Source: Patescibacteria group bacterium (GTDB lineage Bacteria > Patescibacteriota > Minisyncoccia > UBA6257 > UBA9933). From it: a stretch of 60,772 nucleotides of DNA. Location of the stretch: positions 1 through 60,772 of the forward strand of contig JASEIG010000003.1 in NCBI GenBank assembly GCA_030017615.1, given 5' to 3'. The notes beneath the pieces were generated by a model. That model was given only the letters and a program-made list of their open reading frames with translations, searched no databases and was not told where the DNA came from. Of this stretch, positions 23,247-49,656 are shown piece by piece. Each line of letters starts with the position of its first letter. The first letter of the stretch is position 1. The translations under genes and the position numbers were made by a program.

Positions 23247-23261
23247 TTTTAATTATAAAAT

Positions 23262-23442
23262 GAAGCTCACATGGGTGCTTGCCGTTGCGCAACCAATGCG
23301 GCGGAATGTGGCGTGTCGCCATAGGCTATACTGACGCCGCGCGAAATCCGCCAAAGCGCTCCTCTACTTCTCGAACTTCGGAGGGCCGCTATGCACAGAC
23401 ATTCACAGCTTTACAGTCATAATCTTCTGCGAAGGCGGATAG
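23262..23442 (+). repeat. GC-rich structured repeat element, copy A (full length)
   Basis: The 3' ~105 nt align with 44536-44640 and 49548-49653. Shared blocks: GCGAAATCCG, AAGCG, CCGCTAT, CATTCA, TCTTCTGCGAAGGCGGATA. Two helices show compensatory changes between copies. Confidence 0.7.
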
Positions 23443-23451
23443 AAAAAAAAT

Positions 23452-23488
23452 CAGCCCCAGACATTTTAAATATTGGTGTCTGGGGCTG
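23452..23488 (-). terminator. Rho-independent terminator for the small Zn-ribbon ORF
   Basis: cagccccagaca/tgtctggggctg 12-bp stem, followed on the minus strand by T8 (23443-23450). Confidence 0.7.
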
Positions 23489-44494: not shown

Positions 44495-44505
44495 AAAAAT
44501 TAATT

Positions 44506-44535
44506 GGAGGGCTTATGCCCTCTTTTTCCTTTTTT
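44506..44535 (+). terminator. Rho-independent terminator
   Basis: gagggc-ttat-gccctc followed by tttttcctttttt. Confidence 0.7.
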
Positions 44536-44640
44536 GGCGAAATTCGTCGAAGCGCTCCTCTGTAATTTTTGAGCTTCAGAGGGTCCGCTATTCGCATTAT
44601 TCACGGGCTGATGGCTGTGGTCTTCTGCGAAAGCAGATAA
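44536..44640 (+). repeat. GC-rich structured repeat element, copy B (3' half only)
   Basis: ggcgaaattcgtcgaagcgctcctctg...cagagggtccgctattcgcattattcacgg...tcttctgcgaaagcagataa. Collinear with the 3' halves of copies A and C. Confidence 0.7.
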
Positions 44641-44687
44641 ATAATAATTGCTTGTTTTGGAGTTTGAGTGTGATAGACTTTAAGCAA

Positions 44688-49435: not shown

Positions 49436-49656
49436 CGAGGCCTTCGCAGGATTACCCCGTAAGTATGGAAGTCAATCTCACGGAGCTTGCTCGCTATTAT
49501 GTAGCCGCTATGGCGAAGCAGGCGCCCGTGGTGCCCCTCATTGCTTTGGCAAAATCCGCTGAAAGCGTCTTCATTTGCTTCCCGAGCTTTGGAAGTTCCA
49601 CTATTCGCATTCATTCATGACCTGACGGCCGCAATTTTCCGCAAAAGCAGATACGC
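49436..49656 (+). repeat. GC-rich structured repeat element, copy C (full length)
   Basis: ctcacggagcttgctcgc...ggcaaaatccgctgaaagcgtcttca...ggaagttccactattcgcattcattcatga...ttttccgcaaaagcagatacgc. Collinear with copy A over ~185 nt. Confidence 0.7.

Follow-up and report, generated by a model that had tools for sequence, protein, structure and literature searches.

Analysis of a 60,772-nucleotide stretch of a patescibacterial genome (the window) identified three GC-rich intergenic stretches that are probably non-autonomous, gene-less derivatives of IS200/IS605 elements, resembling palindrome-associated transposable elements (PATEs) and now decayed in this genome. The layout is assigned to IS200/IS605 because the family has two different ends, a hairpin of the same orientation at each, and neither terminal inverted repeats nor target duplications. 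The copies in the window are regarded as relics, since the genome has no such transposase and their helices are broken. On this reading the family is widespread and apparently undescribed, new within a known kind of element, and not a new class of RNA.

Copies of the element in the window

The three related stretches (copies A, B and C) share a collinear core of about 105 nt with a mean column identity of 64% in a three-way alignment, and copies A and C have further 5' sequence in common beyond the core. Across the entire 566-kb genome (25 contigs, 37% GC), a profile built from the three copies (nhmmer) recovered no others: the three gave E-values of 1e-28 to 1e-31, and the rest were weak fragments. 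GC content was found to be 0.55 for copy A, 0.47-0.49 for copy B and 0.52 for copy C, compared with 0.373 for the window, where GC skew follows gene direction only. Consistent with the first-pass annotation, which had described three collinear, GC-enriched copies between genes on one strand, all three are intergenic and lie on the plus strand in the orientation used there. According to homology with the end of a transposase-bearing IS200 in a relative (genome G075, described below), this plus strand corresponds to the bottom strand of the IS and the window minus strand to its top strand, and the copies are therefore assigned to the minus strand.

Copy A (23260-23442, minus strand), flanked by a Mur ligase gene (murE-like) and recO, is the most complete copy, scoring 116 bits with the three-copy covariance model (R1) and reading ATGAAGC ... 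GAAGGCGGATAG on the plus strand. It contains an additional GC-rich internal module at about 23296-23338. Its left-end-type domain (23384-23443, minus strand; 58.2 bits with the 3'-domain model, R2) keeps the outer helix CCGCU.../...GGCGG, and its subterminal hairpin (hairpin 2) has decayed to CACAGCTTTACAGTCATAA. Copy B (44503-44641, minus strand; core 44536-44641) is located upstream of ruvB, with nusB further upstream, and scores 134 bits with the three-copy model and 64.5 bits with R2. Its outer helix has one mismatch and most of its 5' module is lost; judging from the layout, a T-run and a probable remnant of the first (right-end) hairpin, GAGGGC-TTAT-GCCCTC (about 44507-44522), precede the core and probably extend the copy to about 44503. 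Copy C (49465-49654, minus strand; 115.7 bits with the three-copy model and 54.5 bits with R2), between polA and eno, belongs to a subfamily with an expanded first hairpin, like loci L014 and L019. It has two outer-helix mismatches, and its UGCGA strand has become CGCAA. The places of the copies thus stand as first annotated, with corrected boundaries for copies A and B and a start of copy C at 49465 instead of 49436.

The window copies are degraded and locally close to relics, hairpin 2 being broken in copy A and the outer helix mismatched in copies B and C. They score 54-65 bits with R2, compared with 66-82 bits for young copies. As single sequences they fold no better than shuffled controls on either strand (z -2.0 to +0.7). 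No Rfam family matched the window at gathering score, and no relevant match was found for copy A (E up to 10) or for five good relatives (E up to 1); ARAGORN found neither a tRNA nor a tmRNA in the window. The first-pass annotation had likewise found no match to RNase P, tmRNA, SRP, 6S or common ribozyme cores.

Several neighboring features were observed in the window. A perfect 12-bp hairpin, CAGCCCCAGACA...TGTCTGGGGCTG, lies directly beyond copy A (23449-23486, no strand assigned), preceded by an A-run and followed by T-rich sequence. Located between the Mur ligase gene and recO, it is a likely two-way terminator, lies outside the element, and gave only spurious miRNA-type hairpin matches in the Rfam search. 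Just 5' of copy C, GAGGCCTTCGCAGGATTACC (49436-49464) resembles the left-end tail of the family, CCGCCTTCGCAGAAGA, in opposite orientation and may be a piece of another copy, lying in inverse orientation beside the start of polA. The contig starts with a GC-rich stretch (1-120) containing a nested hairpin, GGCGGAATTGG...CCAATT...GCGCGCCGCC, which may be a different repeat that ended the contig. The partial copy proposed earlier at 79-120 could not be retained, as it gave no match to the family model (best E 1.1).

Distribution of the family

A covariance model built from the three window copies alone, the kind of scan proposed in the first-pass annotation, recovered the family in other genomes: 24 further matches were found in 5 of 60 relatives (6 of 61 in another count), at 2-11 per genome and with E-values down to 7e-15. 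This recovery shows that the similarity among the three copies is not due to chance. Within the same order, the R2 model detected the family in 56 of 401 genomes (14%), in many taxonomic families, with 1 to 11 or more copies each. Several to many of the R2 matches sit at contig ends, and partial matches revealed solitary hairpin copies.

An invariant 18-mer, TTCTGCGAAGGCGGATAA, occurs on more than 120 contigs among the matches listed, across many phyla. According to the labels of the metagenome-assembled genomes (MAGs), the hosts include Desulfobacterales, Omnitrophota, Planctomycetota (including Scalindua), Saccharibacteria, Binatia, Elusimicrobiota, Neomarinimicrobiota and Anaerolineae, among others. 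Several of these contigs often come from one MAG, and the subfamilies are lineage-specific. No family matches were found in the IMG/VR, phage and plasmid collections, and literature searches with sequence strings and through recent preprints on intergenic features gave nothing on the family.

Architecture and covariation of the element

Loci of relatives revealed that the element is longer and that its ends are constant, 5' (A/G)TGAAGC and 3' GCGAAGGCGGATAA(A). In the plus orientation, the terminal ATGAAG at the 5' end pairs with CTTCAT around hairpin 1 (CCACGGGC-UUAC-GCCCGUGG). This is followed by the hairpin CUUCGGCGG-AAU-CCGCCGAAG, an optional helix CCCUCC...GGAGGG (P3) and the 3' domain UCCGCC-UCGCA-UUCAU-(hairpin 2)-UCUUC-UGCGA-A-GGCGGAU. 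Hairpins 1 and 2 (CCACGGGC-loop-GCCCGTGG) are imperfect and lie in the same orientation near the two ends of full-length copies, and the ends themselves (ATGAAGC... and ...GGCGGATAA) are not inverted repeats. Read in the IS sense, on the window minus strand, the order is TTAY / CCGCC-TTC-GCAGAAGA - hairpin - internal GC-rich hairpins - hairpin - GGAGCTTCAT /, where the slashes mark the element ends; the left tail is TTAY / CCGCCTTCGCAGAAGA-hairpin, or TTATCCGCCTTCGCAGAA as a string. Size forms of 47-50, about 130, about 150 and 180-240 nt were found. The shortest forms consist of the two termini around a single hairpin, the forms of about 130 nt have no middle, and the longer ones have added hairpins.

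Covariation was found to be real for the hairpins, for P3 and for one long-range helix. P3 is the helix that the first-pass annotation had recognized from CCUC/GAGG and CUUC/GAAG in the window, and reading by eye gave CCCGCC/GGCGGG and AUCCUUC/GAAGGAU in relatives as well, so that it is a genuine helix of the family. The 3' domain is 83% paired in 18 CPR copies, compared with 33-42% when partners are slid. Double changes in hairpin 2 occur at five of its eight pairs in these copies; among 97 distinct sequences from many phyla they occur at seven of eight, with 91% pairing. Three compensated versions of the outer helix were found (AUCCGCC/GGCGGAU, ACCCUCC/GGAGGGU and AUUCUCC/GGAGAAU), the helix next to it changes from GCA/UGC to GCC/GGC in relatives, and the base beside the outer helix (AT or GT) covaries with the TTAT or TTAC tetranucleotide abutting the left end. 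The internal loops GAA/GAA and UUCAU/UCUUC are conserved. One motif occurs in three copies, two direct and one inverted, which change in concert and give two mutually exclusive foldings; the 3' strand has two alternative pairing partners.

The covariation earlier read into a 3' hairpin, UCUGC-GAAR-GCRGA, was not borne out. No compensatory change was found in 18 family members, its 93% pairing being due to near-invariant sequence, and its bases take part instead in long-range helices that covary. Neither does this hairpin favor the plus strand, as had been argued, since the variant in copy A favors the plus strand and that in copy C the minus strand. In hairpin 2, the best-supported hairpin, A.C and C.A mismatches (36) exceed G.U and U.G pairs (20), the reverse of the pattern expected under selection on a plus-strand RNA, and thus show no sign of such selection.

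Mobility of the family

Near-identical copies were found between unrelated genes within three genomes (G040, G009 and G041). Comparison of G041 and G351, which belong to the same genus, revealed copies that are 93-97% identical, with flanking genes at 78-88%; one copy is orthologous and all others are at different loci. The orthologous site of one G041 copy (L003) has no copy in the same-genus relative. Near-identical independent insertions have neither terminal inverted repeats nor a target duplication, and their flanks share only A-richness. Among 27 loci, 10 copies are co-directional with the neighboring genes, seven antisense to both, five convergent and five divergent; the fixed strand noted earlier is therefore a property of the three window copies only. 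A plain MITE had earlier been associated with copies in both orientations together with target-site duplications; the orientation is indeed mixed, and duplications and inverted terminal repeats are absent.

TTAT or TTAC always abuts the left end. In G259 (contig C2; L041, 1329-1733), a 134-amino-acid ORF with no Pfam match reads through a complete element in reverse sense, and the element adds about 50 residues (YPLSQKATGVSPWMNAKCGPSEARRTKEGALADSAEEIKDITAVSPWGLH) midway in an otherwise roughly 85-amino-acid protein. Removal of either 147 or 150 nt keeps the frame, and an insert of 147 nt fits a boundary after TTAT. The whole gene pair at this locus is absent from the orthologous place in G387. 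Two same-genus comparisons gave no clean empty site: the copy is absent at the orthologous place, and the intergenic DNA is too diverged for a base-exact junction. A TTAY target is consequently inseparable from the element itself. A single look-up of an identical flanking protein gave no result.

No transposase or recurrent protein family was found near about 150 copies, and no Y1 transposase within several kilobases, which indicates that the copies are non-autonomous. Other repeats were also observed. Two short sequences at L003 (250-530 and 3009-3100; G041:C4) recur dozens of times (65-97% identity) on contigs of G351, which points to further abundant repeat families in these small genomes. 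At L015 (1730-1800; G040:C13), one family copy is followed at a distance of about 140 nt by a tRNA gene (66 bits), and no general link of family copies to tRNA genes was seen.

Relationship to IS200 and Y1 transposases

IS200-type members of the IS200/IS605 family carry tnpA only. Comparison of the coordinates of hairpin matches with those of Y1-transposase matches revealed one coincidence, on contig C1 of G075, where a gene for a Y1 transposase of 142 amino acids (PF01797, 98.8 bits) lies between two identical hairpins, CCACGGCCGTAAGGCCGTGG. The reverse complement of the right end of this IS200, ATGAAACTCCACGGCCTTACGGCCGTGGTTTCTTCAT, is identical to the 5' module of the family at 32 of 33 positions in L042 and at 33 of 37 in L010. 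The left end has in common with the family the hairpin, its flanking GAATCC and GGTTTT, and the layout of an outer helix around it (here 7 bp, ATATGCC/GGCATAT); its 20-nt tail differs from the family tail. An autonomous element with the exact left-end tail of the family (TTATCCGCCTTCGCAGAAGA) was not found among the IS200 loci examined. Seven further full-length IS200 tnpA loci with flanks read, of ten fetched, have unrelated ends, including one in the genus with the youngest copies. In G075, short two-hairpin units, CCCCGCCC-loop-GGGCGGGG beside the right-end hairpin of the IS200, were observed at L212 (520-600) and L211 (490-580); they look like miniature, gene-less derivatives of the intact IS200 in their own genome.

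PF01797 had no match in 32 of the 56 element-bearing genomes, including the genome of the window and the copy-rich G040 (11 copies) and G351 (eight copies); G041 gave no match either. Absence of a Y1 transposase from the host fits dead copies and bears on their activity, not on their origin. Overall, PF01797 is present in 112 of the 401 genomes of the order, 24 of the 56 element-bearing and 88 of the 345 others. This enrichment is modest, and most of the genes are RAYT-like, 220-256 amino acids long, with different palindromes. The six RAYT-like genes examined have palindromes such as AATCTATCGACNNNNNNGTCGATAGATT, unrelated to CCACGGGC..GCCCGTGG, and no family copy adjacent. These six RAYT-like Y1 genes (L227-L232: G009:C33, G050:C1, G377:C14, G220:C28, G250:C14 and G167:C14; 220-256 amino acids) share the motif MPNH(Y/F)HLL, and several are bounded on both sides by short palindromes of their own, e.g. 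AATCTATCGAC...GTCGATAGATT. They constitute a separate REP/RAYT-type system common in this order.

Other partners were considered and rejected. Reverse transcriptase is uncorrelated with the element. PF07282 (TnpB) is absent from all 61 relatives while control genomes match, and no nuclease gene is near the copies; a role as scaffold of a TnpB/IscB guide RNA (omega RNA) is not supported.

Proposed mechanism and alternative explanations

From the end structure and the match to G075 we infer the following course. A Y1 (HUH) transposase, supplied in trans, would bind single-stranded DNA at the two subterminal hairpins, which share one orientation. Its left cut would fall directly after TTAY, about 16 nt 5' of the left hairpin, and its right cut after TCAT, about 8 nt 3' of the right hairpin. 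The element would then leave as a single-stranded circle and re-insert 3' of another TTAY without target duplication. The conserved helices and their compensatory changes would represent DNA folds and end-pairings used for transposition and not an RNA gene, and the element would once have moved as single-stranded DNA and now be decaying in this genome. Several findings stand against this reading, among them the missing autonomous element with the exact left tail, the 32 of 56 element-bearing genomes without a PF01797 match and the modest enrichment of Y1 genes. Many copies have a single hairpin (47-50 nt), a form that an IS608-type transposase dimer should not move; we read these as products of deletion. 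Known PATEs also need nothing as elaborate as the internal modules and the alternative pairings of the 3' strand with two partners. A simple deletion derivative would not need conserved hairpins between its ends or three motif copies that change in concert, and a small probability of an added function is therefore kept.

The first-pass annotation had argued for a functional RNA or an RNA-guided or mobile element. The mobile alternative is favored by copies that are multiple, patchy in distribution and variable in position, with IS200/IS605 end architecture and a match to the right end of an intact IS200, and the RNA-guided one is not supported, TnpB being absent from all 61 relatives. A family of functional structured RNAs, either small RNAs of their own or parts of neighboring mRNAs (stabilizer, processing site or switch) for which mobility is secondary, appears unlikely. 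On this view the helices would form in RNA, and the 3' strand would act as a conformational switch between its two pairing partners. Several features would suit such an RNA: helices that covary, one of them long-range; conserved internal loops; three motif copies that change together; and several plus-strand loops of the form C(UUCG)G. So would the strong hairpin found within 50 nt downstream of half of the CPR copies, compared with 34% of controls, but this excess is absent in the cross-phylum set. The family also has no Rfam match and no conserved upstream promoter, its orientation to neighboring genes is mixed, A.C mismatches are not depleted relative to G.U in hairpin 2, and copies occur inside ORFs in opposite sense. 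Hairpin loops are GNRA or CUUG on the other strand only, and the window copies fold no better than shuffled sequences. It is also improbable in our view that the family is a self-contained single-stranded DNA or RNA device, kept in genomes without a transposase, which either chooses its own targets by base pairing or acts as a transcribed regulatory RNA. The IS200 leader in Salmonella acts as a transcribed regulatory RNA, and target choice by base pairing is conceivable because the outer helix reaches into the TTAY tetranucleotide. The 18-mer that is invariant across phyla, the conserved internal loops and the concerted three-way motif change are the features behind this proposal, and transposon ends leave them unexplained.

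Two further explanations accept mobility and differ in the enzyme. In the first, the hairpins would be repetitive extragenic palindromes that owe their spread and maintenance to a domesticated, single-copy host Y1 protein (RAYT) and not to an IS. Such genes are common in the order and somewhat enriched in element-bearing genomes, and solitary hairpin copies occur; however, the six genes examined have unrelated palindromes of their own and are not beside family copies, and four genomes (G040, G351, G041 and G000) carry copies without a Y1 gene. The family, in contrast to REPs of 20-40 nt, has two different ends and a defined internal structure of about 150 nt, and is very unlikely to be of this kind. 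Movement of a hairpin element by a non-HUH mechanism, through an unrecognized nuclease or recombinase in trans or through replication slippage or template switching at hairpins, is also unlikely. The resemblance to the IS200 end would then be convergent or limited to the shared hairpin, but convergence would hardly produce a 32/33 match with the right end of an IS200 that encodes a transposase, a match that takes in the terminal ATGAA and its pairing partner TTCAT, and no alternative enzyme recurs near the roughly 150 copies. This mechanism would account for the lack of any Y1 gene in most host genomes, the missing autonomous partner with the exact left end and the frequency of single-hairpin forms in many phyla, and it agrees with the results for reverse transcriptase and TnpB.

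Three further roles were rejected. A small protein gene is contradicted by copies that differ by indels of 1-2 nt and by short forms that stop after 14 codons, and stop-codon depletion is weak. A cis-regulatory leader or 3' UTR element does not agree with orientation and neighbors that are not conserved; the ruvB neighbor common to copy B and L018 is within chance expectation. Targeting of terminators was discarded, as the downstream-hairpin excess is weak in CPR copies and absent elsewhere.

Significance

For the window, the results remove a candidate new RNA and leave three GC-rich islands that are transposon relics and can be masked as repeats. The structure of the family is read as being under selection, and the degraded copies found here are locally close to relics. 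One IS200-derived, gene-less family seems to explain many GC-rich structured intergenic repeats in Patescibacteria, and it is also present in Desulfobacterota, Omnitrophota, Planctomycetota and other phyla. It breaks assemblies at contig ends, makes spurious ORFs and can sit in frame in genes, and a named model would therefore improve the annotation of uncultured genomes. An outer helix that is compensated and touches the target tetranucleotide would constitute a natural test of the IS608 rule relating guide and cleavage site.

Comparison with known systems

Rickettsia palindromic elements (RPE) and pneumococcal BOX elements are structured, modular, gene-less repeats; RPE are sometimes found in frame in genes, and BOX elements are built from exchangeable modules. 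Neither is known to have a link to an IS family. The family described here is similarly structured, modular and gene-less, has no sequence relation to them, and matches an IS200 end.

REPs are single palindromes of 20-40 nt with a conserved 5' GTAG, arranged as inverted doublets around a single-copy RAYT (PMC8266576, PMC3479197). Like REPs, BIMEs and REPINs, the family consists of GC-rich, intergenic, multi-copy hairpins with a link to HUH Y1 enzymes, whose substrate is single-stranded DNA; unlike them, it has two different ends and no adjacent RAYT. PATEs are ends-only derivatives of IS200/IS605 elements (PMC7290912). The family likewise consists of short, protein-less, palindrome-bearing IS200/IS605 ends, presumably moved in trans. 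It is far wider in distribution, occurring in many phyla and, within one CPR order, in 14% of genomes, and it is modular, with internal helices conserved through compensatory changes, whereas described PATEs are usually simple deletion derivatives in a single genome.

The closest comparison is with the IS200/IS605 elements themselves. In IS608, the left cut follows TTAC, 19 nt from the foot of the hairpin, and the right end is TCAA, 10 nt from the foot of the hairpin (PMC3201880). The family likewise has TTAY at the presumed left cut, 16 nt from the hairpin foot, and a tetranucleotide, TCAT, at the right end within 8 nt of the hairpin foot. Common to both are asymmetric ends with subterminal hairpins in the same orientation, without inverted terminal repeats or target duplication, and the intact relative in G075 shares the hairpin and a 33-nt right-end module with the family. 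The pairing of CTTCAT with ATGAAG just 5' of the right hairpin recalls the pairing of guide and cleavage site in IS608; in the family it is plain Watson-Crick pairing. The family differs from IS200/IS605 elements in having no transposase gene in any of about 150 copies, and none in this genome, and in conserved GC-rich hairpins that occupy the space between the ends. It also differs in a left end wrapped in an outer helix of 7-9 bp that reaches into the presumed target tetranucleotide.
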